Positions 13,003 through 64,000 of a stretch of DNA of 64,000 bases are shown in pieces (position 1 is the first letter of the stretch; every line of letters starts with the position of its first letter). The stretch lies in the NCBI GenBank assembly GCA_905178155.1, contig CAJINV010000002.1, positions 9,373,412-9,437,411 on the forward strand, given 5' to 3'. This DNA comes from Amoebophrya sp. A120 (lineage: Eukaryota; Protista; Dinoflagellata). Made by a program: the position numbers and the translations under genes. Below the pieces are notes generated by a model that worked only from the letters and a program-made list of their open reading frames with translations, was not told the DNA's origin and did not search any database.

Positions 13003-16000
13003 ATGGAAGGCAAGTTTTTCTGCTTTTCTGAGCCTTCGCTCCACTTGACCCCGGCACCAGGTCGTAAAAATATTAAAGGAAGCAAAACAAAAAAGAAGCC
13101 TTTGAAAGGCTACAGCGCCGACATTGACGATGAATCCGAATTCCTCGACCACGAGAGCAGTTTATTTTCGCAAGAGCCTCCAGAGTTTGGAGAAACGAGA
13201 AATTTTGAAGGCGGTGCGCCCTCTGCCGCAGTGTTACAAGAACAAGATCAACATGCAGCTGCTCAAAATGACGACGGCTCTAATCATGCACGTGGACAAG
13301 AAACTACACGTACGGCACTGCAAGACGCCGACAACGGCACGCGAGACGAAAACGACGAAGGTGAACCGGAACCCCGTCAGCAACTACATAGTTCGAAAAG
13401 TAGGGTTTATTTCGACCTTCAAGGCGGCAGTTTTACACCGATCGGCAGAAAGACGAAGACGCTGCCGGATTTCACAGACAACCGATACAAGGATGGTGCG
13501 AACAAGCGACAAAACACCGCTATCTCACACCGACCGCACGCCACGGAGACGGGGGAGGATGTGGATGTTGTCCCCACGGCAAATTATATCACAGACCGCG
13601 CGCGAAGAACATACTCGAATCAAAACCTCGTGGCCCCTCTGAACAACTTTTCCAGTGACCACGATGACGCAGCTGCTGTTCGTCCCGAGGATATTGAACC
13701 GGACCACGAAAGAACAACGCGAGTTTCCAAAGTGGGTGTGGTATCGCCGAGAAGTAGCTCGACCTCTTCCTCGTCGGAGGGCAACAATCACGAGTTCGAG
13801 AACCTAGAGGATGAGTCTTTCGAGTTCGGGCACCTGTGCGGCAAGGGCGGCTCGGCGGAAGTCTACGAAGTAATGAATCGGAAGGGCGAGAAATTCGCCA
13901 TGAAAGTATGGATTGCAAATATGTCTGGGTCTGGAAGGCAGTAACTTGTGATGCTAAGTCTACACCCTGAAAAAATGTGTGTTGCATGACTGCCAACAGT
14001 TGTCCACTTTTGACCAAGTAGAGAGCGAGTTTCTCATGCAGGACCGGCATGATATAGATCTTAGAGAATCTGTCATGCCAGGTCCTGCATTCCAGACCTC
14101 ATGGGTCATGGAAAATCTGCATGACAAGCTCCCACGCTTCCAGACCCAGACATTTTTGCATTTGATAGAAAGTCGTGTCCGCCAAATCGACCCGGCAGTT
14201 GGAAGGCTTCCTGCAGGAAGTCCGGTTGTTGGAATCCCTGTCGTCTAAAACTGCTTCTAACGCTTGTGCGGCAACGGCAGGAGGTCGAGGTGGGAACAAA
14301 AATTGTGCGGTGGATTTGAAAATGACAAACCCAACGCCCGAAGAGGAGTATGAAGCGAAAGCGGAACTCCGGCGGCAGCGGAAGGAGATCCACCGGTGCA
14401 TCATTCGGCAGTTTGCGAGTCAAGCGTTTTACGAGAGCAAAAAGTTGTACATTTTGCTCGAGTACGCGGAGTGCGATTTCCACCACTATCGACAGGAAAA
14501 ATCCCCCCTCCCCATATCAAAACAGAATTTCTGATGCTGGATTTGTGTACACAAATCAGCTTTGCATTGCGGGAGCGCGTTCCGGCTAGATCCCCAGCCT
14601 AGGTAGGGGCGTATCGGTCTAGTTGCTCAGCATGGCAAACGGCTCCCCTTTGGGCCCAACAGCATGACAAATCGCTTCCATAATGGGGGCGAAGCTTCTG
14701 GCTTTGTCTTCTTGCAAGACAAATGCGATTTGTGACCTCAAATCAGCAGCGCAAATTTTCGGAAGCATGCCTTTTCGATGTGGGGAGGGGGATCTTTCCT
14801 CTTAATAACCACTACCTGAAATCCTTCGAGAAGGGGATGCCGCTCCCGGAACTGGTGCACAGTTTCCACCAAATCCTCCAGGCGGTGAAACTGATCCACT
14901 CCCACAACATCGTGCACTTTGACCTGAAGCCCGCCAATTTCCTGATCGTGAAGAACAAGATTAAGCTGTCCGATTTCGGCCTGGCCCGCCGCATCGAGTC
15001 CGACGCCACGCACATCAGCCGGAACGGGCACTGCGGGACCATCCGCTTCATGTCGCCCGAGGCCTTTTACCAGGCCGAGAACGCCAAGGCGGAAACGTCC
15101 ATGAAGCTGAAACCTAGCACGGACGTCTGGTCCCTGGGGATCATCCTGTACCTCATGCTCTACTCGCAGACCCCCTTCCAGCAGTTCGAGTCCATGCGGG
15201 GCAACCGGGTGATGTTTGCGATCGCGGACCCGCGGATGCGGGTGTTGTACCCCAAGTTGCCCGACCGGTTTCTCATTTGCACGAAAAGTCGCGTCCTCCC
15301 CCCGGGCTTTGACTACAAAAAAGAGGTGGAGGCCGGCAACTTCGACGTGGCGAACCGCTATCTTCAGGTTGGGGTGCTGCATGTCGTCGCGTTGCTACAG
15401 TACTGTCTCAAGCACGATGCGGAAGAGCGGGCCAGCTGCGGGCAGTTGCTGGACTACTGGTCCTATTTGCTGACGATTCCGTTAGGCCCGTCTTGTTCTA
15501 CTTGTTCTGTTGCGGAAACTGGTACCAGTACGACCCCCGCAGAAGTACCGGGCGGGGAGCAACCAGAACCCAAATCGCTCGTACAACTACCAACACAGCA
15601 TCAAAACGCGACCGCCTCGCAAAAAGTCCAGTTGTTAATGGAGAGAAGCGTTCATAATTCCCCAGATGAACGAACTGCAATCTTTGTGCAGCCGGCCCCA
15701 TTCCCGCAGGGCGACAAATTTGTGTCCTTCGACGACGAAGACGATCTGACGACAAACTACCACTCAAACTCCAGCGGCAGTGAAAACACTGTAAATGGCA
15801 CATCTGCGACGTCCGAGAGTAGAAGCCAAAATGCAAGTAACAGCACTGATAACAATTCTATGACTCTTGAACAATCGGGAAGAGAAGGGAACAAGACCAC
15901 AGCTGCAAGTTGCAGCGTCGGGGTCGGATCGAGCACCACTTCTACGTCAAGCAAGAAAAAGACCTTTTACGCGAAGATTTTTCGGGTGAAAAAGGGGAAA

Positions 16001-19000
16001 GACTGGGACTGGAGTGATTGCTTGGCGCACCGGGAAAAAGATCTCGCACTTCTGTTTGATCTGCAAGACCAGAATATCATGAAGAATAAAACGGTTGACA
16101 ATCAAAATTCCGATGCTGATGAACAGGGAACGAGAACGACGGGAGGAGTTGTAGAGGAAGGAGAACGACCCAGTGAGGAACAACTCCTGCAACCAGGTTG
16201 TCTGCTGGGGACGCAAGCGCAACATTCTGTTTCTGCCGCACGCACTTCTAATCCCGATCATACGCTATCTTTCTCGAATCACGCGAACAACAGCTACAGT
16301 TGTGACTTGTTGTCCAGAGGACTTCCGCCCATTCCAGAAACACTCGGAGACGACGAGGAAGAAGAATCGAACGCATCGGCGCATCTTGAAAATCCGGACG
16401 GGTTTTCTTCAGGGCCGCTTCTCCACGAAGGTGGCGGTGTAGACCTGCTCCCAGATGAAACACTGAACCAGCACCGACATGATCATGATCGAGAGCAGAG
16501 CGAAACCCATAAGAAGGGCGTTTCGACGTCGTCCAACGAAGGAGAAGAGACGAGAGCGCTTCTGCCGTTCGAAAGAGCGTCGAAGCACTGCGACCTTGTG
16601 GACCTGGAGGCACCAGATCTGGAAATAAACGAGACCAGTGGGGGTTCCGGAGCATGCTCCTGCTCCTTGATTTGGATCATCGTCTGTGTTGTAGCAGCCG
16701 TTGTAGTCATTGGCGGAGTGGTGTGGATCGTTGTGTGGCAGACAAATCTCGCGCAAAATCAACAGGAAGGGGGAAACAATGCACCCAGCGAAGGAAATCA
16801 GGACCCACCCCCAATCACAAACCCGCATGGCGGTCAAAATTCTTCGGGAGGAGACAATTCTAGCGGGCATCACGGCACGAACGGGCAGAACAAAGTTGTT
16901 CCGTGGTTCATGACAAGCTTCGAAGCGAACAAAGTGATCCATCCCGACCTTCCAAGGGAATCACAGTGGCGGTGGATGCTGGAAGCCCTTTTATTAGGCG
17001 ATCGCGCGGCTGGCAGTGCTAGGGCTGGTAGAAATTTTGGCTCGCCGAACGCCACGGCCGACGCACTGGTCGCGCTTTATCTCCAGGCTGGAAATACGCC
17101 CGCGTCTCCTGGCGGTCGTACAGGAAGTAGATCTTCACCAACAAAGGCCGCTGCTGCTGTATTGCGTAATCGAAAAGGGGGGGACCACTGGGACAGCATT
17201 CCGGCAACAACATCTTCGGAGCGCCGGAACTTGCAGATGAACATGATCAGCCGACCTGCGCAGCTCTTTTTCATGAGCCGGCAAGCAGCAGCTGCGGGTG
17301 CGGTTGCGGCTGCGGCCCCCACCTCCACTTCCAGTGGAAACGAGGAATACCTGCGCACCGAGGTTCTGCCGCATCCGGAGAAAGTGCAGCAGTTGGTGCT
17401 GCAAATCTACGCCGACATCTACCGCAGGGACGAGAACACTGCGAGCTCCTCTTATCCTCTGAAGGAGCGGTGCCTAGAGGAGCTGAAACATCACGACTAC
17501 ACGGCTGACGAAAACAACCCAAACGAAGCCACGCTCCTGATTCCGGCGTTGCTTCCAAGTGGAGATGACAATCTTTTCATGCTTCCGGACGACAGTTTTA
17601 CGGCGCGCAAAAAATTCGTCGAAGATTTTCTCACCGTTTCTCGCAACGAAAACGGCAATTCCTCCTCTACCTCGACATCATCTTCTACAGGGCAAGGAAA
17701 CAACCCGGGGCGGCCTAGTCCTGACCCCCGACAGAGGAGATTGCAGTTGGCGCGGGAAAGCTACAGTCACATGGAGGCCGTCGTGCGGAAACTGCATGCT
17801 GTCGGCGATCGGCACCCGGGGCAGCCGAATAGTGCGAACAGTGTTGCCCTCGTCCTAAAGTCTTTTTTCTACTACTTCGGCTGCCCCGGCAATCTCAGCA
17901 AGAGCAGCGTCGTAGTGGCGCCAGACGAGGAAAACGGAACGCCACGGATGAAAACGGTGTATGACCAAGAAGCAGACAAAAGGAGGAAGGTCTTCCGGCA
18001 GGACTTCCACCTCCAAGAGAGCCAGATTCACTCCGTTGATGATTTTTTGCAGAAATACAACCAGAAAGTGGAAAACCTGCAGCACGGAGGTGACGATGGC
18101 GGCACGACAAACCTCGGGCAGTTGTCGCCTGCAGCAGCAGGAGGCCCGACGGCGAATGCTGGAACGAACGGAGGAGGACCTCCGGCACCGACACCGCCCA
18201 ACCATGTCGGGGCAAGTTACAGCGGCAGCAGTAGCACAGTACAAGGAAATCCTGCATTGCAGCCCCAGCCACCAACACCATCTGTGCCTCCACAAACGGG
18301 GCCCCAGGCCGGAAGCGCCGGAGGTGGTGCTACGTCCACACAACACCCAGAGGCAGTGCCAAACACTGCGACGGGCACATCAAACCTACTTCACCAGCAA
18401 ACCAGTACCGGACCTGGTGGCCCAACGCAAGTCGTGACGCCACCAACTACTAGCTCAGGTTCAACAGCTTCAACCGTGGTAGCGCAAGAACCAGCACCGG
18501 CAAACGAGAATGCGGCAACCACCTCCGCTCCGCCTGTTGTAACTGGGCCGCCAGCTGCACAACTACCGCCGCCAAGTGCTACTACTTTCTCTACTCCACC
18601 GCCCGATTTTCCCCCTCCTTCCGCGGGTCCAACTCCCCCGCCGAACGACTACTCTGCTGCTACGCCAACCTCTGGTCCTCCACCGCAGCCTATTCCACCG
18701 CAGCCTCTGACCAATTCGGCGCAAGCATCGCAGCCTGGTGCGCAACACGTGAACGCTGAAATTATCAACGCAGGACCGTCCATCGTCGGCAGCCTTGGTG
18801 CAGCACCCGCCCCGTCCGGGATAATTTCACCGACACTTAACCCCGGAAGTAGCTCCGGGGGCGCGGCAAGCGTCACTCCTTCCGCGGTGTTTGGTGAGAG
18901 CAGTACTGTTCTTGCTTCGTCCGGTGGTGGCGGAGGAGGTGGCGTTGCTTCCTCCAGTATCGGGGGTGGTGGCGCATCGAGTGCGAGTGCGGGTTCTGCT

Positions 19001-22000
19001 GCAGCTCCTGCTCCAGGCGGTGCTAGCAACGCCTTTCATCCAGCACAAGAAGCGCAGACACCCTTAGGTCCGGCGTGGTGGATGACGGCCAAGATCGTTC
19101 CCGCGATGAATCCCTTGCACGGTGTTTGGCCAGCAGTCCTTCGCAGGCTCCTGAAGGAAGGCGCGGCAGAGCCGGTAGTTTTGCAAGCGCTGCAGCGGCA
19201 CCTTCGAGACGCTTTGGAGTTGTCGGAGCTGAGCAACCTCTTCGAGGATCGGCATGATCTACGCCTGTTAGCCACGGCAGACTATGAGTGGAACAACCCG
19301 CATAGTCAGCGTCAGGAAGAGTTTCGGCGCGATTTTAAGGAAAAGCTTTTGGACAAAAGTGCCTCGGCCGTCCGCGGTTTGGTTAAAGCGATCTACCACA
19401 ATATTCGAAAAGAAAATTCGTTCTTCCGCGAGCACGCCGGTGGTAGAGTGGTGGATGAGTGCCTCAGTGTGTTGCAAGAAAAGCCTTCTAGCACACCGAC
19501 GCGAGCAACCGGTTCGGATGCAAGTGCAACTGAGAGGGAAAGAAGTGTACATGCAGCTCAAAATGCCGAAACAAGTAGCAGTTCCTCTTCTTCTCCTCCT
19601 CGAAGTGCAGCGCAGCTCAACGGGGCGCCCGCCGCGTCAGAAGATGGAACGCGACCAGGTGCTACGGAATCACTTTTGCTGGAGCCTGCGCTATTGCCCA
19701 ACCCGCGGAACCTCTTCGATGGGCGACAGATACTGCCCAAAACCAGGTTTCGAGCTAGTCGCGCAGAAGAGAGAGCCGCCCTCGAGGAGTTTTACACCAG
19801 ACCGGACTCCGCTCTTGAGAATCTGTCTGTCTTCAGAACAGGGTGGCACAAAGAAACAAAGAAGTGGGTTCTTCGACAAGCAGTGCGCAAGATGGTCCAA
19901 ATTATCGCAGGTGTGCGCGCGATCGTCGCCGGGTGGGTAAGTCCGATAAATCTGTTATCAGCAGCGAGTGCACCGCGGTCATATGCAGCAGCCGAGGCGG
20001 ATCCAGTCGCGCTGGCATTCTTTCTTTTCGGGTGCCCGATTCCAGAAGAACTCGCGCGAATAGAAGACCCGGTATATCTCGACGACCAGAACACTAGCGG
20101 AGAGGAGGAGGAGGAGGACGAAGATGCCACGCATTCTTCCCAACCGCAACGACCGGACAGGGTGGCAGTTGTCAAAAACAAATTCATGGAAACGGACACT
20201 GCCACGCATCCAGCATGGGAACTACCGCCCGTGAACGAGTTTGACGAGGACGCCTCTGAAGACAAGCACGCTTGCGCGGACCTTTACCACTACAATGCGC
20301 CGTCGCACCATCGTTCAATATTACATTTCCCCGATGCGCCCGATTGGACGCAGCGAGCGTCGGCCCTCCATCCGACTGTCGTCCGACACGGAAGGTGTAC
20401 AGTTTTGAAGAGGGAAAACCGAGGAAACGCTTTTTTCTTAAACCTTGACGGTGGTGCAGATGACGATGGTGATCGCGGCGGAGGTGGCAGTTCTCGGCGT
20501 GGCGGAAGTAGAGCAAACCACTTCAGATATGCTGAGGTGGGAACAACGACAACGACAACCTGGACGAGTCACGGGAATGAGACGAGAGAGGCCACCGCCG
20601 CGGAATTTCAGGCGAGCCTCGCGTCGTGGGTGGTCTTCCACTACCAGGGAGCGCACTGGTGGACCGACGGCATGGCGGCGCGGACGAATATCATTCCGGC
20701 GATGAATCCCGAACGCGGCCTCTGGCCCGCAATCTTCCGAGTCCTGTGCAACCACTCCCCAAGCGCCATGAGAGCGTATTTGGAAGTTGCGCGCGACAGC
20801 CTCGCAACAAGTAATAGTCCGGGACGGAGTGCTCCTGCCCGCGGAGATGCAGCTCCAGCAGTGGGGGTGAGTCCTTCATCCCTCTTGGCGACGGACGCAG
20901 AAGTGGCAGAAGCGCTTCGCGCAGCTCTCGACGGGGACTCTGCTGCACGCAACAATTCTAGTAGTACGCAAAATGTTGACGAGAATGATCGCGGAGGGGC
21001 CTTTGTTGGTAGAGGAACAACTTCCACGGTGAATCATCAGCAGGAAGTAGTAGAAGGACCGCAACCTACCACGTCACAGGCGCCGTCGGCAGGATCCTCT
21101 TCTACAACGCCATACATCAACCGACAGACTAGAATAGGGCAGCCTTTTTGCACTGCCGTCGCACGCGAGGTGCTGTCCGACGTTAGGGTGGTCCGGACAC
21201 TTTATCAAAAGGAAAAATCCCCCCTCACCATATCGAAACCGAAATTTGTGATGCTGTATTTCAGTACACAAATCGACTTATATTGCTAGAAGGCCAAAAG
21301 ACGCAGCTGCGGCATTAATTGCAGGCGATTTGTCATGCTGTTTCCCATTTCCAGCTGCCTCCTGTCATCCTGAAGATGCAAGGCTTTCCTACGCCACCCA
21401 GCACTACAGTCCGCTTCTTTTGCCTTCTAGCATGACAACATGATTTGTGGTCACAAATCATGCTACACAAATCTCCGTTCCAGTACGGGGAGGGGGGATT
21501 TTTCCTCTTAATACACTTGTGCGGCACGTGTACCAGCGGATCGCAAAGCATGCCCTCCTCGGGCGTATCAAATGTAAAAATGTCTGGGTCTGGAAGAATG
21601 CAATTTGTCATGCTAAATCTGAAGCATGCAAAAATCTGTGTTGCATGATTACCAAAAGTCGTCCAGTTTTGACCAAGTCGGGAGGCAGTTTCTCATGCAG
21701 GATAGGCATGGGAAAGATCGCACAGAATCTGTCATGCTATGTCCTGTATTCCAGACCTCATGGGTCATGGAAATTCTGCATGACAAATCGATGAAAATGG
21801 CTAAAAAGGGCTTCGTCGATCGATTGTGCCACTAGGGCCTTGTGTTCCGGCTATTCCGGATCGCAATCGATGGAGGGCGGGACCTGCACCGGCGACAGGC
21901 GCTACCCAACCAACCAACCCAATCGCGCATTCTTCCAGACCCAGACATTTTTACATTTGATAGGGCGCCACTCGCAGCAATGTCTAGCTAACGCCACGCA

Positions 22001-23546
22001 TTTCCCAGGGAGCGCCAGGGCAGAAGCGCTGAGAACAAGAATGGTTGACGTCGGACCAGAAGAGAAACATCGGTGGCAGCTGGAGATCTGGGAGCCGCCG
22101 CTCCTACCCAACGAGAGAAATCTGTACAAATTGAACAACAACGAGATGCCCTGGATATATCAAATGAAAAAGAGCCCTGGCCCCAGCAGCAAGTTTCATA
22201 TCGCTCCTGTATTTGCATTTTTTTACAAACTTTCCGAGCGAAATCAGAAATTTCCTTTCTGGCATGAAAGCACTGCGGACCATTCTTAATCGAGAATGTA
22301 GCTCTGCGAAAATGCAGCCTTGAGATGATAAGGACAAATGCCGCTTTATTTGCTGGGCCTCAAGTTTGCAACGCGAATGCTCGTTCTGCACCTGCCCTGC
22401 AAATTTCAATATTTTTCATCCGTAAGGAAGTTTTGCAAGAAGACAGATACTTCTTGTCGCCTTTCTGGGATGGAAGGGGCGCTTTTCATCTCGATAACCA
22501 GGAGGCGGAGTATCGTGGTAGTGACCTCTACCTCAAAGCACCTGTCTACTCCTTCGAGACCGTGCAGAGCAATCTGGAGAAGTTCTACAAAGGGGAACTC
22601 CCTAAGCAAGTAGACGAGCAAGAATTCGAGGTCTCTCTTGGTCCCATCTTGCGAGTGGATCCGGACGGAAGAGTCACCGAAGGAAGTTTGGCTACTGGAT
22701 CTAGGCCGCTTCCTTATCAAATGCAAAATATGTTTGGCTTTGGAAGACTGCCGAAGTTTGTCGTGCGGTTGTTCTTGCAGGAACCTTAACCTACTACTGG
22801 TACTACCAGCCAGACGACCCAAAGGGGGCGGCTTCTGCATCTGCTATTCATGCAATTCAGCAATAGAGATTTTTGACATTTGGTGTCTAACAGCACACGT
22901 AGCATCACAAACTCAGACTCTTCCACGCCCACACATATTTGCAACGCATATTCCTCGTGGCATTGCGATAGACGTGAAGTCTGCTGCAGTTGGAGCTGCC
23001 ATGGATACTCTCGATCACGTTCGAACCGTCATAGCGCAAGTTGCGACGCTTTTGGGCCGATTTTCATCTCAACAAGATTCCGGGTCCACAACGCCGTCCA
23101 CCTCCGCCGCTGATCAACAAGCAAATCTGGTGTATTGGGCCTTCTTCGTGCTCGGCTGCCCTGGACACCCGCCGACCAGGTTCATTGCCGCGTGGCCAAA
23201 GGATGACAACGGCAGGACAATGGAGAGCCATGAAATCGCGTGTAAGAAGCATCCCTTCTTGAACGCTCGCATTGCCGGCCACTCCGACCCGGAACCCGCG
23301 CTCCAAACGCCACCAGGGCGCTATCTGTGCACTACCTTGTTAAAGTTCGGACGGTCCAGTCCGGTACCACTATGGGAGACGGACACAGTGACTGTGACGT
23401 TAAGGCAGCAAGGTGTCATCGAAAAATTCCTGGATGAAGTTGTGAATGGCCGCGAGGAAGGTCTTGGACTTGGACACGCGCCGTCTCTCGCGGTCTTTCT
23501 ACAGTGGTGGAGCGAAAAATTCAACAGACACGCACAAGAATACTAA
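13003..23546 (+). CDS. Giant Mps1/TTK-like protein kinase with transmembrane helix and repeated C-terminal domains (~2939 aa)
   Basis: GKGGSAEVY, FAMKVV, IVHFDLKPANFL, KLSDFGLA, GTIRFMSPEA and DVWSLGIILY..TPF..AIADP resemble Mps1/TTK. TM helix LIWIIVCVVAAVVVIGGVVWIVVW at ~16668-16740. One continuous frame (8820 nt) after removing six elements. Confidence 0.85.
13907..14167. mobile_element. Introner-like TIR element, family A
   Basis: Direct repeat GAAAG. Removal restores FAMK-VVS at the kinase catalytic Lys. Confidence 0.92.
14487..14807. mobile_element. Introner-like TIR element, family D
   Basis: TATCGACAGGAAAAATCCCCCCTCCCCATATC ... GATGTGGGGAGGGGGATCTTTCCTCTTAATA, direct repeat ACCAC. 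Removal restores CDFHH-YLK. Confidence 0.9.
21203..21513. mobile_element. Introner-like TIR element, family D
   Basis: Family D TIRs, direct repeat CACTT. Removal restores VRTL-VRHV. Confidence 0.9.
21566..21962. mobile_element. Introner-like TIR element, family A, enlarged (397 bp)
   Basis: Near-perfect family A TIRs, direct repeat GGGCG, ~140 bp extra internal sequence. Removal restores LLG-RHSQ. Confidence 0.92.
22158..22325. mobile_element. Decayed introner-like element
   Basis: Begins TATCAAATGAAAAA, ends TTGAGA, flanks GGATA/TGATA. Removal restores MPWI-RTNA. Confidence 0.6.
22715..22950. mobile_element. Introner-like TIR element, family A (diverged)
   Basis: TATCAAATGCAAAATATGTTTGGCTTTGGAAG ... 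CTTCCACGCCCACACATATTTGCAACGCATA, direct repeat TTCCT. Removal restores RPLP-RGIA. Confidence 0.85.
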
Positions 23547-30800: not shown

Positions 30801-33800
30801 AAGACCCAGCGCCGGCGGTTGCCGATTTACAAAATCCAGGTGGAAATGATGTTGTCCCTAACGATGAGATGAACATGGCCAGTGGAGAGAAAAATCCTAC
30901 TACCTCGCCCGGCGGGGACAAGAGTTCCATGGCCTTGACGAGAGAAAATTTGTCTTTGCTAAACAAGGCAACTGGATGGTCCGAAGAGCAGCGGACGTTG
31001 CTCTCCGGCGACAAAGAAGCGGGCAATTGCAAATATTATGCTAGTGAAAAGGAACCCCTTGTCGCAAACGGCGATGCGGCCGAGGCGAAATCGGGCGATA
31101 TGCTGAGCGAGGAAAACGCGAAGGCGGCAGAGCTCTCGGAGACCAAAAGAAAACTCATAGTATTCGGCTCGATCATAGGCGCCTTCGTTTTGGTTTCTGT
31201 AGTCCTCCTCGTCGTCCTGGCACTGCATTTCAGGTGGTTTAGCGCAGCGGAACCCGAACAACCACCCGCGCCCACGCCTGAGAACACCGATCCTTCGGCC
31301 AGAGGGGCCGGGACGAACCGGCATAGAGCAAAATTGGGCGCCCTGAACTCCTTCTTTCAGGCGCAGCCGCGGCTCTTCGAGCCGGTGGTCGTCTCCAGTG
31401 GAGTGTCCTACAGCAAGAGGGAAGCAGGACTACTCTGCCAGCACGTGACGGACGTGGACGTCGACAAGTGCTTCGACAAGGTGAATCCACACATTGAGCT
31501 CGAGTATGCCCCGCAAACCACTCGGACCGCATCTCACCACCAGCAGCCTGGGGCTAGGACGACAGGAGGAGCAGCTGGTGCAACTACAACTAGCCCCCGG
31601 CAGCAACGCGCCGCAATAGATGTAGTTGTGCATCATCGAAACATGCAGGCCGCGAACGCGGACACAAGCACACCGCCAGCATCAGCGGTGGAACCTCCAC
31701 CTCTGCCGAAGTTCGTTCCGATCTCTTTTCCCAATGTCGCCTACAATCTTCTTTTCAAACATTGGAACGACCGCGAACACACGGACGCGCACTTCCTGGA
31801 CGCCGCCAATCCCCCCATCCTGCTGCGCTGCCGGGCACTGCGGGTGGTGGTCGAGGAGCATCACCGAGAGGACCGCCGACTAGTCGTCCTCGACGAAAGT
31901 CAACCGGAGCCGGTCCTGTGCCGGTACCCGGTCGTCGACGACCGCGGCCGATCGTTCGACAGCGAGGAGGTGTACCGAAGCACGATTCCGGTGGTGATTC
32001 GCGAAGCGAATACGCGAACAAGAGGCGCCGGCCGCGTTGTCAATGCACCCGCGAGTGGTCTGCAGCCGGGGGCCGTGCGGGCCGCGGGAGCGGGGGCGGC
32101 GCAGTACAGCTACAAAAAACTGTACCGCAACGACGGACTGAAGAAGGCCGGTGATGCCTGGAAGCAACTGCATGCGCTGGAAATCGCGCCGGACGTGCAA
32201 GTGCAAAACAGGACACCTCCCGCCTCGCGGACGCCGCCCAGTAACCCCGCCCGTCCGAAAGGCAAGCCACATGCTCATTCGGGGCCAGTGCCGCAGCCCG
32301 GAGGTGCCAACAATGTGGGTGTAACGCATGCCGTACCGTCGGCGGTCGCGGTGGTCCCCGTCCCGAAGGCGACAAACCTGCAAGTACAACCACCACCGTC
32401 CAAACCTGCAGCCGCGCAGCCCACCGTCCCGGTTTCGAGTTCGACGCCAGTAGCATCGTCATCTCCGACCCCATCAGCAACATCTTTGCTGACACCTAGC
32501 GCTGGCGCACTGCCGCAGCAAGGCGCGTCTCCCTCCGCACAAGCAAGTGCAGCACCGACGATGCAAGGAGACGCTACAAGCTCTCAGCAGCAAACTTTCG
32601 CTCCCGCGGCGCAAGAGGGCGCTACCGCCGGATCATTGCCACCAGCGCAGCAAATTTCCATTCCTGCAGCGCAAGGAGGCGCCGCCCCCACCGCCGGTTC
32701 GCCGCAAACCGCTACCCCTCCTGCGACGCACGGGACGGCGCCCGGATTTTCGGCGCAAACCGATGCTCTTACATCGCATGGGAGCGCGACGACAGAGCCA
32801 ACGTCTGCTGGTGCACCAACAGCATTAATATTGCCCTTATCACCTGCACTGCCGGGCTCCAGTAGTTTTCCTGCTGCTTCAGCGCAAGGAGTGGCCCCGG
32901 GAGGACCACATAGTACCGCTGTCCCGTCCACCGTCGCAGAAAACTACTTTTTACCTCCGTTGGCTGCGAACGCGGGAACCATGGCACCTGTGCCGGTGTC
33001 TGGAACTTCCGCAGGCTCTCCTTCCGTCGTGGCGCCACCCCCTACAAGTACAACCCCCGCAATTCCGCCGCGACCTCCATCCGAGCTGGAGCGGCTGCCC
33101 CGCTGCAAGCCGCAAGATTTGGTTTCGGAGCAGGAGCGGGCGCACGAGGCAGGCCCACTGGTGAAAGAGAACTACGACTGGGGCACCGAAGAAGCTGCTC
33201 CCGAAGAAGCTGCATCTGCGGCTCGTCCGGCAAGAAGGCGTGAAAAGGCGTGCGTCACGATTCTGCGAGATGTGATGCTCGACAAGCTGTCTGACAAAGA
33301 GATTGAGCAAATTGTGGCGGAAATCACCCCATACTGGTACGAGTCGAAGTCCGCCAGATCTTCGCCCGCACCGAGCGCGCCGCCGAGTACCGTCGCAACT
33401 GAGGATAGCCTCCCGCTGACGCCAACCAGCCCAGCCGATGCAGACGACGACGGAGGGTGCCCCCCGGCGCAGCGAGGGGACGCCGCACAGGTGAAAGGAC
33501 AACCTCCCGACGAGTTCCACTTGAGACACCAGAATCCTCCCTCGCGCAGCCGCACAGCGTCTCCCCGGAGCCAGACAGAACCAGCCGGCGCCCGGGGATC
33601 CGCGAGCAGCCCGCCCTGCTCGCCCAGATCTGCTTCCTCCGTATCGGCACCGACTGGGAGCAGGGGCAACCACGGAGCCGCGTCGTCCTCGTCCTGGCGA
33701 CCGCAAGAAGATCCCGACGCTAGTGCGCATCAAAGCGCGGCGACCGCCTCCCGGGCGTCGAGCCGCTCATCGACTCGAAATGCGGCGCAAACACGGAGCG

Positions 33801-36800
33801 AATCGATGTCGCCGCTCCGATACCTCTGGAGCAAGATCATGCAGCACAGCTTGCCACGTGGCGGAAATTCTTCGCGGCAAACGGCAAGTGCACGACCATC
33901 GGCCAAGCCAACAACGTACCGCATGTCCATGTGGAGCGCGAGGCCCGATATTGCGTACAATGTCAATGATCGCGAGGTCAAGAACAATCGCAGGTTGCTC
34001 CTGTCTCGGCGGGCTCAAGAGGTCGCGAGTCTTCTGTTGTCTGCCGAAACAACAGTGCTCAGGCTCACGTGGACCGGTACCGTCTCCCCTGCCGCGCCGG
34101 CTCCACCAGGCACCGAAGTGCCGCATGGAGGCGAAGCAGCTGCCGCGGAACAAGAAGGCGAAGTACAAGGAGCAGGCGAAGACCACTCAGAACAGAGCGC
34201 GAGGAAAAAGGCGATCTTACGCGAGCTCACGGTTGAGGAATTCACTGCGGTCATGCTGGTGCGACTGGGGCGACTTGGGTTCGAGGACCCTGCTCTGCAA
34301 CAGGACACGGACCGGCACGGAAATCCCTACCTGTCCGTGGATACGCGCAACGAGCAGGAGCAGAGCAACTGGTCCTGGTTGCATCGCAATTTGGATGACG
34401 ACATAGATGAGCTTGAATCGAAAGCGAACCGCAACAACCCTCTCATCCCTCTTGACAATCACAACACTCGGTTTCTGACGAACGTGATCGCACCCCGTTT
34501 AGGAGATGCTGCATTCAAGTGTGACGCAGCGGACCGCAGAAGGTACGAGAAGCTGTTGGAGTGGGCGCAGGATAAGTACGAGAAAAGCGCCAGTCTTCCC
34601 GTTTTATATGGGTTGAGCGACAGCCTGGGGCGAGACACTGCCAGAAGAACCCAGAAGAGGGCCCAGCAAGGCGACCTGGAAGACGTGACGCGACCGAACA
34701 GGCCGCAGACATACGAACAACCTAAAGAAGATCTGTGCGAGGTATCTTCCAGTGTGCCCGTTGCGTATTGGGCGTCGTTTCCCTTATGGCCGCGCAAGGA
34801 ACGCCGCAAGCGAACCGTTGATGACCAGCGAACCGTTGATGAGTACCACAAACAATGGTCAAAGCTGGCCACCCGGATTGCCTGCGGAGACCGGAGGTCG
34901 CTGCTACCCAGAGACGCAGCCAGTTTGGTCTACTCCCTCGTCGTTTGGTCTCCGTACGAGGGTCGTAGAGAGACACAATCACAAACAGCTTCCCAAATAA
35001 ACTTTGGAAACCTGCGCATGGACCTCAACAAAGTTTCAGGCCCGATCATCGGGCAGGACCTGGAGCTGGAATGGAAGCGGCAACAAGTGCAGACGGTCTG
35101 GGCCTGGTGGCGGACTTGGCAAGAAAAGTACTTTGGACACAGAGACCGGAACCATGACGAATTGTTCCGCGATTTTTTGCGGACACACATCGCCGGGCCA
35201 GAAAGTTTTTTTAGCCGCCGGCTGTTATCCCGAGCGACCACGATTCAGCGCGTCTTGCTCGACGAGAGTCGCCGGGAGCGCTCCTGGTTTGGCGGCCTCT
35301 ACCCCACCTGCAGAGGGGGGTACTTTGGCGGCTTTCCAACTTGGCGCAGCTTCGAAGCAAATCTGCTAGTGCAATACCGGCGCCTAATGCGACGCCGCCT
35401 ACACATCGAAGACGATCTCGCGGACCCAAAGGAACAAGCGCAGTGGAAAGATGCAAAAAAGCCGTTGAACAGGCGCTCCGACGAGATGGGCTGGGTCACT
35501 AAGGCTTACCGAAAGTCTTTGTGGATGTGGTTTTTTCATCGGCCCAAGTTTTGGAACGCGCACGAAAGTCCTACCCCCGCCAAGACCGCGGGCCGCGAGT
35601 CCGCGGACGCCGCACCGGTTCAGGACCCGTCCCCTGCCGCTGCCACTGACGGTGGGATGCCCGGCCGGAATTCGGAGAACGAACCCAATATACGGTGGAA
35701 AAGATGGGTGCCGGACGCCAGCGAAGACTATAGACTTGAACGTTCTGCGGAGCTCTATCGGCACCTCCGCTTGGTGGAGGAATACGGGTATGGCAACGGC
35801 AAGAAGCCTCATCAAGTCTTTACGGTGCGTCAGCAACGAACCGCGGCTGGACTCCGCATGCCGAAGTACGGTGTTAAGGAAGCAATTGACGGCACACTCG
35901 AGGAGAGTGACGGGTACAAAGCTTACGTCGCGTCAAAGCAGAAGGACTTGGACGCCGCACGACAAAAGCGGGCGTGGGACAACGATTCCGAGGATGCGGG
36001 GTATTTTCGGAAACTGCTGGCTCGGCGTGACCCCGAGACCTTCCTAGAACGGCTTCCGGGGGACGAGTTCGTTCGCTTCCTTCTCTTCCGCGCTCGGCAG
36101 ATTAAAACAACTGAAGGGGCTAGCCCAAAATACGCGAAATACTGGCACGTCGACGAGGGACGTGACTACGACAATTTGTGGAACACCGTGGTCCAGCAGA
36201 AGGATGAGATCAACCACATGCGCGACCTTTTCGTGCACCACCTGCTAAAGCCCTTCCAGTCCATCCACCGGTTCGACAACGCCGCGAACGACCCGTCCAC
36301 GCTGGACGGAAAGAGCCGCGAAAAAATGAAATGGGAAGAACAAGTGCCCGCTGATGCCGCGGACGGAAGAACCGTGCGCGCGGCCTGCGACTCTTCGCGC
36401 TACCGCACAGTGTGGCGACGGCGGGAGGAGTACCCTCTCCGTGGTAAACGCAGGGAGCATCAATATTATAGCGAAGAAGGTGAAGACATGACCTACATGC
36501 GTGGAGCTGGACGCAGGAGCAGCATCGGCCCCGAAGATAAAATCAGTACGCCGCAGTTCTACCCGGATCCAAGGGTGGCGCTTGAAGATTTTCACGAAGG
36601 CCCTTCGCAACAAGACGGTGAACAAATCCGTGTCGTGTTCAACACACAACAATCCAATCCTCCATGGACGCAGGACCGCGGGGTTTTGCCCGTTTGTCTT
36701 CGGGATCGGTTTTTCGATAGCCAAGATCGTACGGACGTCGAAGCCAAAAAAGAATTAGACGACGACGAGAGGGATTTCGTCGAGGCCCCCGACGCATTGA

Positions 36801-39800
36801 CCGCTGTCATCCCTCTGCTCGCGGGGGGGGCGGAGGAGCGCGAGAGTCATGGGTACGGTCTTTTCAGTGAACTCTCCACAACCGATGCAGATGTAAAAAG
36901 GCGGGGCGAGTGGCTGAAAAGGCACGGGGCGCTCGGACTTCCGGGCGATTTCGGATTTCTGCGTCACGTGGTGTACTCACCACCCGATGCAACTTCTATG
37001 AACCAGGATTCCCGTCTGCCACACATTTCTGAGCTTCTGGATCGCGCTTCCGACTTTTTCCTCCACGACACGTACAGCGTCCTGCCAACGCCGGCAGGCA
37101 CAGTGACCGACCCCGCCGTGGCCTGGTCCCAGCAGTACGAGGAAGTACGCGTGTGGAATGTTCCAAATCTCGGCCTCCTTGAGGAGGTACGGCTGCGCGA
37201 CGGCACAACATCATCCTCGTGGGCCTGGCATCCGCGCGACCTCCGACTGCCTCTGCGGTCCTGCACCGCCGGTCGAGACGGCTATCTGTCTTACGAAGCG
37301 GCCGCAGAGGCAGAGAGACGCAGGTCTGCCGTAGCGGTGGCCGACGACTCGCGAGAACCTGCTTCTGCCACGCTAGTCAATGAAGTGGAACAACCTGCGG
37401 ACGATAGCCGACGTCGAGAAGATGAACCGCCACCTACTGTTCCTTTTCCGGCTCCTGCCAATGAGCCTGTAAAAGACCAGGGCGGCAAAAACGAGCTGCC
37501 TGTGCAGGAGGGGGAAACTTGCGCCTCAGACCCGCTCCTTTGGAGATACAAGGAGCACGCGTACACCGCCGCGGCCTTGGTGGAGTACGAATGGCCACGG
37601 CTGCTGAAGTCGTTTCGGGAGATCTATTTGAACGGAGACGGACGCAAAAGCGACACTGACACAATTCGGAACGCGAAGGAGCTTGACCCGCGCTTGTACT
37701 ACTACAGCCCCGACCACCACCTCTTCTACCTTGACTACGAGAAGGTTCTGCAATTCGAAGCTCTTGCTCCCCTGCACGCCTCCGCAGTGCGAAGTGTTGA
37801 ACACGGCACAAGTTCTGCAGCCGCGTCCTCGCACAACCAGGAAACCTCCGCACCACGGAGTGTTGATGATGAACAGGGCACAACTACAGCTGCGTCCTCG
37901 ACGCAGGCTCCGCCGCATGATCCTCCGCGTCGCCGCGCCTTCCGATGCCACGCGCATGAAATCACGCCCGATGTTGAGATCCGCGTGCGCGCCGCCGTAG
38001 AAAAAGTGGTACGCGCGCAGTACGAGGAAGCGCTGTTCAGCGGAAGAGGAGCGGACGCTTCAGTGGGGAGGGCGATCGATGACGAAATTGAAACGTTGGT
38101 GGACGACTTAACCTGGCGCAAGGACGAATATTTCGAGCTGTCCCCCCTGCCGGAAAAGTCCCCCGTGCTCAAGTCCCCCCTTCCGGCAAAGCGCATCCTG
38201 GTTAAAATATCGGACCTCGAGTCTACTGGTACTGCGCATGTGCGGCTCGACAGCCCGAGCTTCCCCGCGCACACCTTGAATCCACGACCACCTCGTCTGC
38301 CGGCCCTCCGCAAACAGGACGTGGAGACCGAGCCGCGCAAGGGCCGCAAGTACTTCCAACGCACCAACTACGCGACGCACCATGCCGTACACACGCTGTA
38401 CGGAAAGCACTTAGTCCGTCCAATGCGGGACTGGATCACACTGCCGAAACAGTGGCTCACGCCCGTTGACCCAGTTCTGTCCCTGTGGGTGCGGACCTTC
38501 TTTCAGAGGCACACTCGGTTTGTGCCGGACAGCGATGGAACCGGGGGCGCGGTTGACAGCTTGGCGCGCCTCGTCTTCGCAGATGATGCCCAGAGAGTTG
38601 AAAACGCAGATGACCAGAGTGTTGGCCAACCGCTCCACGCGGTTTTTCGCCCCGGCGCGTCGCCGGATGCGCTCCGAGCGCAACAAATCGGCCTGTACCA
38701 CCTGGAGTTTCTTTCGAAGAAAGGCGAATTGCTTGTGAGCGAAGAGATCCACGGTCCGCTCTACAGTCAGAAAATAGACGACAGTCCGCACGGTCTCCCG
38801 ATCTCATACCAGTGGCTGCCGAGGGTTAGTAAGCTGCTGGAGCTGTCTTCTCCACACGAGGCCCAGACGGCGGATGATCGCCAGTTCGCTCCTTCTGTAC
38901 TGCCCGCGTTTGATCGACCAAACGCGATTACCGTCGTCGGCCAATCGGCTCATCTGCCGCCTCCACGGTCCGTGTTTGTTTCCAGTCAGCACAATGCATT
39001 TGGAACGTCACCGGCCCGAGATCTCCATCCCGCGTTGAAGCGACACAAAGCGGACCGGAGAACGGCACTGCTCATGGGTGAAGAAGCATCCCATTTTCGC
39101 CCTGATTCTAGGGATGACGATGAGCCGCCAGTCAGCAGTCTGTGCTCAAGTCAATCCAACCCGGTTCTGGAAAGATACAGGATTCTGGATAGAACAAAAC
39201 GCGACTGGAAATACGATACCGCGAGTCGGCCTTTGTACCACGTGGTCGCGTTTCCCGAGTGGCCTGCAGCTTCCTCCGCAAGTTCCCGGCAGGCCGGGGG
39301 ACCAGATTCATCATCTCCTGCGTCCGACGCAACTACAGCCGGAACACCTACGCCGAATAAAAAGCACGTACTCTTCCGAGTCACTCCCGCACACCAACAT
39401 CAAGAACGCGACACTAGTGCAACAACAAGAGAATCAACTACCCGTACTAGGCTTCTGTCAGGCGATCCGGTCACAGTAGCTAACCAGCGAGAGCTGGATA
39501 AACTGCTCGACTTGGTTGCAGCGCAACCGACGATTCCTCCCCGCGACGCGGCTGGAAACCCCATAGATGGTGCCGATGCAGTGGCTGATGTTCATCCACC
39601 TCGTCCAGCTAGTGACACTAGGAGGAGTCCACAGGTTGCTACAATTCAACTTTCCTCAGATTCTGCTTCCGCGAATGCAGCACCCGAGTCTGCCCGCTTA
39701 GACCAGGGCTTTCTAGCGCCGACGCCCGTACTCTCCCTGAAGTTCAAGTGCGCGGACGCCGGAAGTCTAGGTTCCTTCTCTGCTCTCGGGATGAATGACA

Positions 39801-42485
39801 CTGGCGACGCTCGAAGACAAGAACTCTCGACGAATGCTCCGCTCGTGCGAAGCTGTGCCACGCCTTCTGCCTCGAAAAATGCGATGTTTCGAAATCCGCG
39901 CTATGTGTTCGAGCGAGCTGGCGGTACTCCACCGAGTGCAGCAGCAGACGAAGAACAAGCGACGGAAATAGAGGAGTACCACCTACTTGTGGACAAGCAG
40001 CCGACACTCGACGACTTTGTGGTGCTGCACGCGTTCCCCGAGGGCGTTCTCGCGGCGCCACTGTCCTTAGACGAAACCGTAAAAACTCCGCAGGCCGGGC
40101 ACGATCCCTTCGTGGATTGGCTTTTGGAACAAAAACAAACAAGGTCCGAAACAAGAATTACACCCAGAAACGAAGAAAGCCAAAGTATCAGTTCAGCGAG
40201 TAGCGCAAGAACGACGAGCGCCGGCGTTGCACCGGGAGAGGTGTCGCAAGCAAGCACAGAAACAGGTCCGGGAGGCAGCCCTGGAGGAGAGCAGCATCCT
40301 GCAACATCTTCTACGCTTCGGGCGTTCGGCGTCGTTGCAGCAGCTCCAACTGGCGCTGCACAAAGGAACGATCTTCCCCTGGCACAAGAACCCCGTGTGA
40401 CCGGGGAAGCGTTCGCTTCACTTCTGGCCGCACCAGAAGAAGCCGTTGCCGCAGTGGATGCCGGGCTTGCTGCAGCAACGGAAGAAGCCGCAGCCGTTCC
40501 TGTTTCTCGAGAACTACAGCCGTTTTTCGTCAAAGACCTGTTTGCCCACGAGCTAGCGACCGACGCACTGGCCGGGAAGCCTTCCCATCGCACCCAGTAC
40601 CCACTAGCCGAACTACCAGAATGGTGGCAGAATGACCCTCGTTTCCGGTTCCCTTCCGAAATCAATTCTATGCGTGACACTCGTCCTAAAAATATGCGTG
40701 ACGACCACCTGAGTCGCACACCGTGCGTTAGTTCCGGCTACTGGCTGGACCTCGCTCATCTTGGTTTCCGGGACAGCAGCGGACTGCAATTGCTGCCTCT
40801 CAGCGACTCGGAGAAAAGTCAGATGACAAAAGTCCAGCAGTACCGTCCGCACGGCCTGGTGTTCTTGCACCAACTGACAGTGGACCTCGTAGAGGGGCCT
40901 TGGGAAGATGAAACAATACCACTAGATGAAGATTCCGAGGAGGAGCAGGATATCAAATGCCAATGCGTCCGGGTCTCCTGGAAGGGTGGTGCAGACGTTT
41001 GTCATATTGTTCGTATTCGGTTACCCGAAACTTCTGGCATGCAAGCTCGTACACCATCATTCAAAATTGCACGTTTATTCACGAAGGCCTCTCAATGCCT
41101 AAAAGTAGAAATCCTCACGGCACGAACGCTCATCTCTTGCTGACACGATACCAGCAACAGCAACTTTTCCTTTTGCTGTGGATGCATGAAAGATGATCTT
41201 CGTGCGATGTAAAATGCACCGCCTTCCAGACGCAGACGTATTATTTGCACTGCATTCATCTCCAAGAAGAAGAACAATCGGAGCAGGAGGGAGACGACCA
41301 AAGTAACGTCTCTGCGTATGATGATTATGATGATGATGATGCTGCCTCTGAGAGAACCTTTGGCGCTGACTCAGTAGTGAGTGGCTCTGTGGAAATGCGT
41401 TTGATGCGTGTCAAGGTTCGCGGGTACTTTGACGTGCACTTTTGGGTCGAAGGCTACTACGATGAGGGGGCACCGCCTGCAGCAAAAAATTCTCCTGCTG
41501 AGTGCCCGACGACGTATCCTAACCAACCTGCCAGACCATCTTCGGATGATCATCTTCATCGAAAAACTTTCGTATGCCAGCGTGTGCTGAAATTCCTATT
41601 TCCATGGAGCCCGCCGGAGGATGATGTTTATGCACTGCGGACATGTCTGGGTCTGATCAGATGCAAGTTTGTCATGCTGGCTGTGGAAATCGATGATTTT
41701 TATCCTGCGCGAGGTATGGCCTCGGTCTAGAAAAGGCCCATCCGTTCGGTCCTTCGTAGATAGTCCCACATCGGGGCTCGCCAATATGTATAGGCGTGGG
41801 GATACCCGGTCGGCAAAGAGCACTACAGCCGCTCAACCGATGATGATGATGAGCAGCAAGAAGTGGCCATGTATGTTCTTCTTGATCTTGTTTCCGTTTA
41901 TTATAAGAAAAAGCGATTACTCATATTTTGATTTTCTCGTGATCGTGTGTGTGGCAAGTGGGCATGAACGAAGGGTGTTTTCGAAGCCTTTTGCTATGTT
42001 TCTGAGCGCATCACAGATGACCATTGCCACCTGCGTGTTTCGAAACCTGCATCAAAAAGAACCGCACTGGTCCAGACTAGGACATTTTTCCACCTGATCA
42101 TTTTGTGCGGCCCAACGAACTGCCTATTGATGTTGCGAACGAATTGCGGGACTCGGTCGACGCATGGCGCAACGAGAAGAACGTCCTGTCGATACCTTTT
42201 TTGTGGGCGAACCGTGTGGACAAGAAATACGAGCGCTGGTGGGATTATTTGCGTTCGCGCAGCGAACAGGGAGACTGGGACCGGTGGCTCAACGCCGAAT
42301 ATTTCACACCGGGGGTAAGAGACATGACCGACGGCGCAACGCTAAGTTTCAAAAAACTCGCTGGCCACCGGCAGTGGAGGTGCACCTTTCCGGGCCGCAG
42401 AATGGAGGTGTTGCAGCGGGCGACTGACCAAGGCCACGACATCGCGGCTGCAGTGGACGGAGCGCCCGTATCTTCTGCTCCCTAA
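24808..42485 (+). CDS. Second giant Mps1/TTK-like kinase with transmembrane helix (~5481 aa)
   Basis: IGKGGSAEVY, YAMKVV, VVHFDLKPANFL, KLSDFGLAKAI, (GT-AG intron 29380-29584) CGTWRYVAPEA, DIWSLGVILY..TPF..LFAITDP. TM helix LIVFGSIIGAFVLVSVVLLVVLALHF at ~31154-31230. Frame continuous after removing three TIR elements. Confidence 0.82.
26042..26270. mobile_element. Introner-like TIR element, family F
   Basis: TATCCAACAAAAAAAGATGGTAGGTGTAA ... TTACACCTACAATCTTTTTTTCTTGGATA, direct repeat TCTGC. Removal joins ORFs 24808 and 26098 (GSL-PTFA). Confidence 0.9.
40951..41262. mobile_element. Decayed family A element
   Basis: TATCAAATGCCAATGCGTCCGGGTCT ... CTTCCAGACGCAGACG, flanks CAGGA/CAAGA. Removal restores EEQ-EEEQS. 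Right boundary approximate. Confidence 0.7.
41629..42099. mobile_element. Decayed, enlarged family A element (471 bp)
   Basis: TATGCACTGCGGACATGTCTGGGTCTG ... TCCAGACTAGGACATTTTTCCACCTGATC, flanks ATGTT/ATTTT. Removal restores DDV-VRPNE. Confidence 0.72.
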
Positions 42486-63872: not shown

Positions 63873-64000
63873 CGTATTAAGATTGTCTATGTCTCTGTCG
63901 CTGGGTCGTCTTAGAAACATGCGCTTGAAATTAGTAAATGACAATAAGCAACAAGTGGGCGGGCGGCTCCTTGGACAAATGCTTGAAGATAATAGTAGAT

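Follow-up and report, generated by a model that had tools for sequence, protein, structure and literature searches.

Two adjacent giant Mps1/TTK-related kinases with a predicted membrane helix in Amoebophrya sp. A120

Mps1 is a soluble mitotic (spindle-checkpoint) kinase. A window of 64,000 nucleotides from the Amoebophrya sp. A120 genome holds two adjacent genes in which an Mps1/TTK-like kinase domain is followed by a predicted transmembrane helix and a very long C-terminal tail. The locus raises the question of whether each gene really encodes one protein, where its kinase comes from, and what such a kinase may do at a membrane. No earlier description of a membrane-anchored Mps1 family of this kind was found in the literature searched. 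Features of both genes are collected in Table 1.

Table 1. Positions in the window of the two genes and their features.
Feature	Position	Strand	Remarks
Gene 1	13003..23546	+	2,882 aa; 7 exons; ATG 13003, stop 23546
Gene 1 exons	13003-13906, 14173-14481, 14808-21196, 21513-21560, 21963-22156, 22501-22709, 22951-23546	+	
Gene 1 Mps1/TTK-like kinase domain	13816..15457	+	aa ~272-621; interrupted by two introners
Gene 1 acidic dileucine motif ETRALL	16547..16564	+	about 35 aa N-terminal of helix; putative sorting function
Gene 1 predicted single transmembrane helix	16667..16738	+	aa ~1025-1048; two Cys just before; KD19 3.17 at aa 1028
Gene 1 tail repeat 1	16880..17974	+	~350 aa, new family; leave-one-out E 4e-7 vs best shuffle 0.51
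Gene 1 Pro/Ser/Thr/Ala/Gly-rich stalk-like tract	18062..19039	+	60% PSTA at aa 1601-1800
Gene 1 tail repeat 2	19055..20074	+	leave-one-out E 3.3e-7
Gene 1 tail repeat 3	20630..23268	+	across exons 3-7, junctions in spliced contigs; leave-one-out E 2.1e-10
Gene 2	24808..42485	+	5,483 aa; 5 exons; ATG 24808, stop 42485
Gene 2 exons	24808-26041, 26276-29379, 29585-40949, 41261-41626, 42103-42485	+	
Gene 2 Mps1/TTK-like kinase domain	28738..30451	+	aa ~1233-1735, long insertions; interrupted by canonical GT-AG intron
Gene 2 dileucine-type motifs EQRTLL, EKEPLV	30986..31063	+	56 and 36 aa N-terminal of helix; putative function
Gene 2 predicted single transmembrane helix	31154..31225	+	aa 1970-1993; basic residues on N-terminal side; KD19 3.03 at aa 1975
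Gene 2 Pro/Ser/Thr/Ala-rich stalk-like tract	32204..33946	+	64% PSTA at aa 2401-2600
Gene 2 distal tail	33947..42485	+	~2,580 aa; ordered-looking and low-complexity blocks mixed; no known domain

Translation of each gene gave a single, terminal stop, and the model lengths agree with the neighbouring giants of ~2900 and ~5500 aa of the original prediction. Eight of the ten splice junctions were matched by joints in spliced contigs (runs X1-X3, all from one sample): 5/6 in gene 1, where transcript contigs end at about 23650-23659, and 3/4 in gene 2, where contigs reach about 43200-43350. Intron 1 of each gene was placed using direct and terminal inverted repeats and the reading frame. Raw-read runs X7 and X8 yielded matches to introner repeats only (144 and 1 reads), which do not bear on expression. 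The introners and the top homologues both indicate an Amoebophrya-like parasite. The chance probability of the stop-free exons was 1e-35.5 for the 6.4-kb exon of gene 1 and 1e-56.4 for the 11.4-kb exon of gene 2, and the annotated frame was top-scoring in 9/9 and 18/18 blocks, respectively. In each gene the exon that encodes the helix also holds the kinase C-lobe, and the kinase reads in frame with the helix.

It is highly improbable, and already largely refuted, that annotation or assembly has fused an ordinary kinase gene to adjoining genes. Some introns of the genome are indeed non-canonical, neither gene is covered by a single contig from end to end or from kinase to helix, and contigs cover gene 2 patchily at 26-34 kb, where gaps are evidence neither way. 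Against a fusion, a single exon free of stops and uniform in its coding signal holds the C-lobe, the helix and the greater part of the tail, junctions within both kinases were observed spliced, overlapping contigs (15436-16279 and 15668-17192) bridge the kinase end and the helix of gene 1, and the same layout recurs across three Amoebophrya genomes.

Motif alignment bore out the claim of intact catalytic motifs in both genes (G-loop, beta3 Lys, alphaC Glu, HFDLKPANF, DFG, xPE, DxWSLG and the subdomain XI Arg). The GT-AG intron in the gene 2 kinase was seen as joint 29377>29583 in a spliced contig. In PDB searches both kinases matched TTK best, with 118.9 bits against 58.3 for Chk1/PLK4 in gene 1, and 51.8 against 43.6 with the N-terminal part of gene 2. 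Both kinases have a non-RD HxDLKPANF loop and the Mps1-type AIxDP motif after alphaG, as defined from the aligned TTK P0010 and lacking in outgroup kinases P0204 and P0130. Identity to conventional Mps1/TTK (human TTK; A120 P0177, A25 P0144) was 35-39% over 263 aligned columns. The kinases of genes 1 and 2 are only 49% identical to each other, and a recent tandem duplication was rejected; the gene 1 kinase has more in common with AT5 P0023 (63%).

In trees (support values are SH-aLRT and aBayes only, read by split), the family of genes 1 and 2 formed one clade (SH-aLRT 100). The kinase phylogeny that had been proposed as a check placed the domain with TTK: TTK and the family grouped against six outgroup kinases, mostly bacterial-type, with SH-aLRT 99. 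PDB matches, motifs and tree support the proposed Mps1/TTK affinity. Under LG+C20 the family was nested with Amoebophrya's own Mps1 and dinoflagellate-like Mps1 (support 99), on a long stem branch (0.86 with outgroups), and without outgroups it was nested inside TTK at 98.2. LG+F+G4 with outgroups made it sister to TTK, not nested, and a position outside all conventional TTK was not rejected by the AU test (p 0.337).

A conventional Mps1 without a transmembrane segment is present besides the family in A120 (P0177) and A25 (P0144). The N-terminal TPR (Mad3/Bub1-like) of Mps1 is its kinetochore-targeting domain. A profile of the TPR region found conventional Mps1 at E 1e-43 to 0.002, including a TPR-like N-terminal domain in that of A120, and matched 0/16 family proteins. 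Since the conventional kinase is kept and the family is missing the TPR-like domain, the family has likely been repurposed in the Amoebophrya lineage. Its members also differ from Mps1/TTK in having several paralogues per genome, a long stem branch, a predicted membrane helix, a tail reaching 3,490 aa in length and a kinase far from the C-terminus (2,261 aa follow it in gene 1, about 3,750 aa in gene 2). A post-kinase helix was found in 11 of the 20 clade members retrieved, including all four A120 models not labelled partial. Most of the nine without it are partial or fragments, although P0004, P0024 and P0041 run far enough beyond the kinase to expect one. None of 146 conventional TTK-like matches reached KD19 2.2, and five reached 1.9. 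A metagenome scan gave at least 79 loci. Those listed were general kinases throughout (24-49% identity), and none of them was a close relative within the family; a viral scan matched 0/10 stretches. Expression values for the A120 and A25 gene ids looked up were not found in the supplements of PMC6176090 and PMC9478091.

On hydropathy, the single helix after the kinase and the absence of an evident signal peptide both stand. Each protein has one strong segment, the next best reaching KD19 1.66 (gene 1) and 1.28 (gene 2), and neither has an N-terminal hydrophobic stretch (best 12-residue means 0.66 and 0.36). Flanking-charge difference favoured N-in in 9/13 proteins; gene 1 (+3) and three others had the opposite sign. 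RING is typically a cytosolic enzyme module, and one lies C-terminal of the helix in P0002 (E 6e-7), which is odd for a lumenal tail; it is the one RING among the 11 TM-bearing members and may stem from a fused gene model.

Dileucine motifs were counted with the standard [DE]xxxL[LI] pattern, because the first pattern, acid..PL[LIV] (7/13 proteins), had been devised post hoc. In 5/13 proteins the standard pattern occurred no more than 60 aa upstream of the helix, against 0.73 expected (P about 4e-4, with windows picked after the motif was noticed, and among related proteins of which two are distant and of uncertain membership). It occurred downstream of the helix in 1/13 proteins, and in 1/17 control kinase-TM proteins. 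As a sequence signal, this enrichment supports post-Golgi targeting and, like the charge bias, favours a cytosolic kinase; the gene 1 charges and the RING of P0002 point the other way on the latter.

A tail of more than 2,000 aa, as first proposed, is present in gene 2 (3,490 aa) and not in gene 1 (1,834 aa). The Pro/Ser/Ala-rich stalk-like tracts were recovered in both, at up to 60-64% Pro/Ser/Thr/Ala per 200 aa. Each copy of the gene 1 repeat has two conserved Cys. One further copy is probably contained in P0001, judged from a BLAST match (E 8e-4); the link is probable rather than proven because the three-repeat profile alone reaches P0001 at E 0.2 only. A PDB sequence search with the repeat gave one match at E 1.2, and its alignment against 7,992 candidates (145-658 aa only) gave none at E<=1. 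AlphaFold models of the repeat were unusable (pLDDT 39.9 from the single sequence, 35.2 from three rows). The gene 2 tail yielded no internal repeat, its exon 3 part had 0 Pfam and 0 PDB matches, and homology between the two tails was not detectable. No known binding domain was matched in the tails by the Pfam and PDB searches. The tails are Cys-poor (0.7%), and N-glycosylation sequons in that of gene 2 are few (0.17 per 100 aa). Across the family, tail length varies between 19 and 3,490 aa, most tails are unrelated to one another, and the models of P0023, P0005, P0168 and partial P0035 stop 19-89 aa past the helix.

A signal peptide and ectodomains of known fold characterise classical type I receptor kinases (animal RTK/TGF-beta receptors, plant RLKs). 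Like them, genes 1 and 2 are predicted to be single-pass with a large external part joined to a cytosolic kinase, in the opposite orientation. This 'inverted' topology is unusual among eukaryotic receptor kinases, as originally stated, but standard in bacterial PknB/StkP/PrkC-type kinases, which passages of PMC4601284 describe as having a cytoplasmic N-terminal kinase, a single TM and a C-terminal external domain that varies among homologues. The shared layout is convergent: the family falls in a separate kinase clade, has 25% identity to P0130 and carries a putative eukaryotic sorting motif. On the evidence of tree and motifs, an origin by horizontal transfer from PknB-type kinases of bacteria was rejected, and a domain search found neither PASTA nor another known sensor in genes 1 and 2. 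Among eukaryotes, VRK2A is an ER/nuclear-envelope kinase of 508 aa, C-terminally anchored according to part of PMC5555652. With a kinase placed ahead of its single TM, it is similar in layout to P0023 and other short-tailed members. VRK2A belongs to a different kinase group and is without a large lumenal domain.

The reading that we favour, with some confidence, is that genes 1 and 2 are Amoebophrya-lineage Mps1/TTK-related kinases with a predicted membrane helix, likely kinase-inside/tail-outside on post-Golgi membranes and likely signalling there, not at kinetochores. To judge from sequence, that site is likely the cell surface, endosomes or secretory organelles. The giant forms of such membrane-tethered type II kinases may be sensors or adhesins. 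A stronger special case is that they are ligand-gated type II receptor kinases, in which a host or environmental ligand on the tail would switch the cytosolic kinase on, as in PknB/StkP; this is possible but doubtful. The order of kinase, helix, stalk and then repeated domains would suit it, as would the three significant ~350-aa repeats of gene 1 with their conserved Cys, the probable copy in P0001, the fast divergence of tails beside an intact kinase, and bacterial receptors that work with the same topology (passages of PMC4601284). Tails of 19-89 aa, if those models are complete, are however too short for a sensor, the searches found no known binding module, and the low-complexity linkers from catalytic loop to helix are so long (226-914 aa) that rigid coupling is unlikely. 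The type II layout and divergent tails of the originally proposed receptor-like family hold, whereas 'receptor' and 'host or environment sensing' are weakened by the short tails, the missing binding domain and the one RING after the helix.

Two other roles seem improbable. The proteins could be Mps1 variants anchored at the nuclear envelope or the spindle pole for the unusual closed mitosis of Amoebophrya; their tails would then lie in the perinuclear space. Mps1 ancestry, the VRK2A precedent of a C-terminally anchored nuclear-envelope kinase (part of PMC5555652) and an extranuclear microtubule cylinder that in some Amoebophrya enters the nucleus via membrane fusions (a passage of PMC12114471, citing Moon et al. 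2015) would fit, but a conventional Mps1 is retained, the proteins lack the TPR-like domain, there is an enrichment of dileucine motifs of the post-Golgi type, and many copies with unrelated tails fit a conserved mitotic role poorly. It is likewise improbable that the tail is the functional cargo, an effector kept in secretory organelles until it is shed or meets the host cytoplasm, with its release under the control of the kinase half. The RING of P0002, the scarcity of Cys and sequons in tails and a dileucine motif compatible with lysosome-related organelles are in its favour; neither a cleavage site nor effector homology was found, and the RING is confined to one TM-bearing member whose model may be fused.

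Membrane-tethered type II kinases could have arisen as follows. In an Mps1 duplicate, the TPR that targets kinetochores would have been lost and a signal-anchor acquired. Given 1,000-2,000 aa upstream and no signal peptide, the helix would insert N-in/C-out, and the dileucine motif would recruit AP adaptors. Tails would have lengthened independently in each paralogue, those of genes 1 and 2 providing a stalk and large domains able to bind host or extracellular partners. Tail-driven clustering would then lead to trans-autophosphorylation of the non-RD kinase and phosphorylation of cortical substrates. The last two steps, tail extension and binding, and clustering and activation, are the weakest. 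In these terms a checkpoint kinase has likely taken a new role, as a multi-copy membrane-anchored Mps1 offshoot beside the normal gene, unreported in the literature searched.

Amoebophrya are widespread parasitoids, able to control dinoflagellate populations. Recognisable apicomplexan-type invasion proteins are few in them, with one rhoptry-like family, according to passages of PMC6176090. On a bolder and rather unlikely view, Mps1 gave rise in Amoebophrya to a family of surface receptors in reverse orientation, in which a eukaryote has converged on the bacterial PknB design and whose giant, fast-evolving ectodomains, including the new ~350-aa repeat, would read the host dinoflagellate. If so, the ectodomains would contribute to host range or to the timing of invasion and egress. 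With a conserved kinase coupled to strain-variable tails, the family supplies concrete candidates for roles in recognising the host and in signalling at the surface.

The kinase domains of gene 1 and gene 2, neighbouring Mps1/TTK-like genes with a predicted transmembrane helix and a long tail, retain all catalytic motifs. In a PDB search, TTK was the best solved structure for gene 1 (118.9 bits; the next family scored 58.3) and for the N-terminal part of gene 2 (51.8 against 43.6 bits). The closest named homologues came from the Amoebophrya genomes A120, A25 and AT5, and a kinase scan of 1.84 billion representatives yielded 32 matches at E ≤ 1e-30, with Amoebophrya proteins among the best single-domain matches. 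Gene 1, gene 2 and 18 other retrieved proteins formed one clade (n = 20), comprising A120 P0002, P0003, P0005, P0034 and P0168; A25 P0033 and P0035; AT5 P0004, P0023, P0027, P0028, P0041, P0113 and P0176; and P0001, P0024, P0057 and P0058. SH-aLRT support was 100 in both trees (18 and 10 members), from which poorly covered sequences were excluded. Under LG+C20 the clade was nested with Amoebophrya conventional Mps1, which lacks a helix, and marine-protist Mps1 (presumed dinoflagellate), with support of 99; under LG+F+G4 with outgroups it lay outside all TTK, a position not rejected by the AU test (p 0.337). The family's affinity to TTK in sequence is considered firm, and its derivation from Mps1 only likely. 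The two kinases are just 49% identical, which rules out recent tandem copying; judged by sequence, the neighbours are old paralogues.

One strong hydrophobic segment was found in each of the two proteins. A post-kinase helix is present in 11 of 20 clade members, including all four A120 models not labelled partial (that of P0168 is weak, 1.8-1.9). The other nine are mostly partial, fragments or AT5 models resembling ab initio calls; P0004, P0024 and P0041 have no helix though long enough to speak against a post-kinase-helix rule. None of 146 conventional TTK-like matches reached a hydropathy score (KD19) of 2.2. P0222 and P0207, distant TTK-like kinases, combine an HFDLKP loop with a post-kinase helix in the family layout; P0222 grouped with the clade (support 96), and both may extend the family into other lineages. 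Having a long N-terminal part and no signal peptide, the proteins probably adopt a type II orientation, which flanking charge fits in 9 of 13 helix-bearing proteins (two distant and of uncertain membership), gene 1 not among them. The acidic dileucine [DE]xxxL[LI] is a cytosolic AP-adaptor signal. Five of the 13, including gene 1 and gene 2, carry it no more than 60 aa upstream of the helix (expected 0.73 from the remaining sequence of these proteins, 0.82 from shuffles), and 1 of 13 carries it downstream; control kinase-TM proteins gave 1 of 17. Because the proteins are kin and the interval was chosen post hoc, the enrichment is weaker than its P value of 4e-4 suggests. For Toxoplasma ROP2 such a signal is disputed, according to PMC5154328. 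Cysteines at the N-terminal (7/13) or C-terminal (3/13) helix edge would be compatible with palmitoylation.

The window is eukaryotic, with mostly non-canonical introns of 234-476 nt. Terminal inverted repeats accompany many of them, as do direct repeats of 5-7 nt, and the introns fall into families found at several places in the window, in agreement with introner elements known from Amoebophrya (PMC7789003). Together with the closest named homologues, these introns suggest that the DNA comes from an Amoebophrya-like parasite, although no search retrieved the window's own proteins. At least two introner families have terminal inverted repeats, the same two families break up both kinase and tail of gene 1, and one introner end motif occurs in up to 12 places. 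Two introns without a flanking direct repeat have weak terminal repeats, yet are precisely spliced out. In the rhodopsin-like gene, one piece matches Pfam Bac_rhodopsin (E 0.005, short of the curated cut-off); the others presumably hold rhodopsin-like motifs, and the sequence also has a charged insertion and ends in a tail.

Coordinates of features in the window
Feature	Position	Strand	E-value or detail
Microbial-rhodopsin-like gene	~6099-8831	+	intron-split
Introner, example	13907-14172
Introner, example	14482-14807
Introner, example	21197-21512
Introner, example	21561-21962
Intron, no flanking direct repeat	22157-22500
Unspliced read-through of an intron, run X6	40889-41276
Intron, no flanking direct repeat	40950-41260
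Serine carboxypeptidase S28 gene, exon	44003-45124	+	1e-49
Tandem repeat, AT-rich stretch	53875-54220		2 x 173 nt, 98% identity
RBBP4/CAF1 subunit C histone-binding protein	62967-63998	-	2e-17

The shortest tail, in P0023, has 19 aa and the longest, in gene 2, has 3,490 aa; comparison of 12 tails gave no pair at E < 0.01 besides gene 1/P0001. The gene 1 tail contains a unit of ~350 aa three times (leave-one-out E 4e-7, 3e-7 and 2e-10, best controls 0.24-0.51). A stalk-like tract separates the first copy from the second, and P0001 probably holds one copy. The unit had no match in Pfam, PDB or sequence databases, and structure prediction gave no usable fold. In gene 2 a stalk-like tract is followed by ~2,600 aa, for which Pfam and PDB searches matched nothing. 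A RING finger at aa 1007-1039 of P0002, C-terminal of the predicted helix, has three readings: a RING on the lumenal side, an effector domain that is shed, or part of a fused gene model.

Without TPR and not soluble, the family falls outside the conventional Mps1 class, from which it likely descends; its domain layout resembles that of a bacterial receptor kinase. The architecture and family are apparently not described before. The literature searched contained nothing joining 'Amoebophrya' and 'Mps1' (subscription journals and bioRxiv supplements were outside its scope, and prior mention there is possible) and, in the portions available, no membrane-bound Mps1/TTK. 'Kinase' is absent from the main text of PMC7789003 and PMC12005148, and 'Mps1' from PMC9418836; the passages found in PMC6176090 concern subjects other than this Mps1-like family.

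Gene 1 has 7 exons (2,882 aa) and gene 2 has 5 (5,483 aa), with intron 1 inferred in each. Spliced contigs of runs X1-X3 (one sample, taken as RNA) matched 5/6 and 3/4 junctions, respectively, one lying within each kinase domain; run X6 read through one intron. No contig covered either gene whole. Gene 1 contigs stop at ~23655, upstream of the gene 2 start, and the genes therefore look separately transcribed. In each gene a single stop-free exon (6,389 nt in gene 1, 11,365 nt in gene 2) takes in the helix along with the kinase C-lobe and the larger part of the tail, and the annotated frame scored best in 27/27 blocks of these exons. It is very unlikely that the kinase-helix-tail architecture is an artefact; architecture and family are real.

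Conventional Mps1 is, by its sequence features, kept in A120 (P0177, 1,271 aa) and A25 (P0144). In both, the loop is the standard HSDLKPAN and hydropathy shows no helix (KD19 1.02 and 1.38), and they form a branch of their own (support 99). The P0177 N-terminus weakly matched Mad3_BUB1_I (E 0.039), and a profile of this region matched other conventional Mps1, including distant ones from a green alga (E 1e-6) and from an animal (E 0.002). This N-terminal module directs Mps1 to kinetochores. The profile matched 0/16 family proteins, and the family therefore lacks the kinetochore-targeting module; a mitotic role at the nuclear envelope is improbable. That the tails are shed effectors, as one option for the P0002 RING would have it, is similarly improbable. 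Going by their layout, the giant members may plausibly be ligand-gated receptors, which we regard as a tentative alternative. Most likely, the family consists of active, membrane-tethered Mps1-related kinases, which would be sorted to post-Golgi membranes with their catalytic domains in the cytosol, and whose external tails would have been lengthened independently among members.
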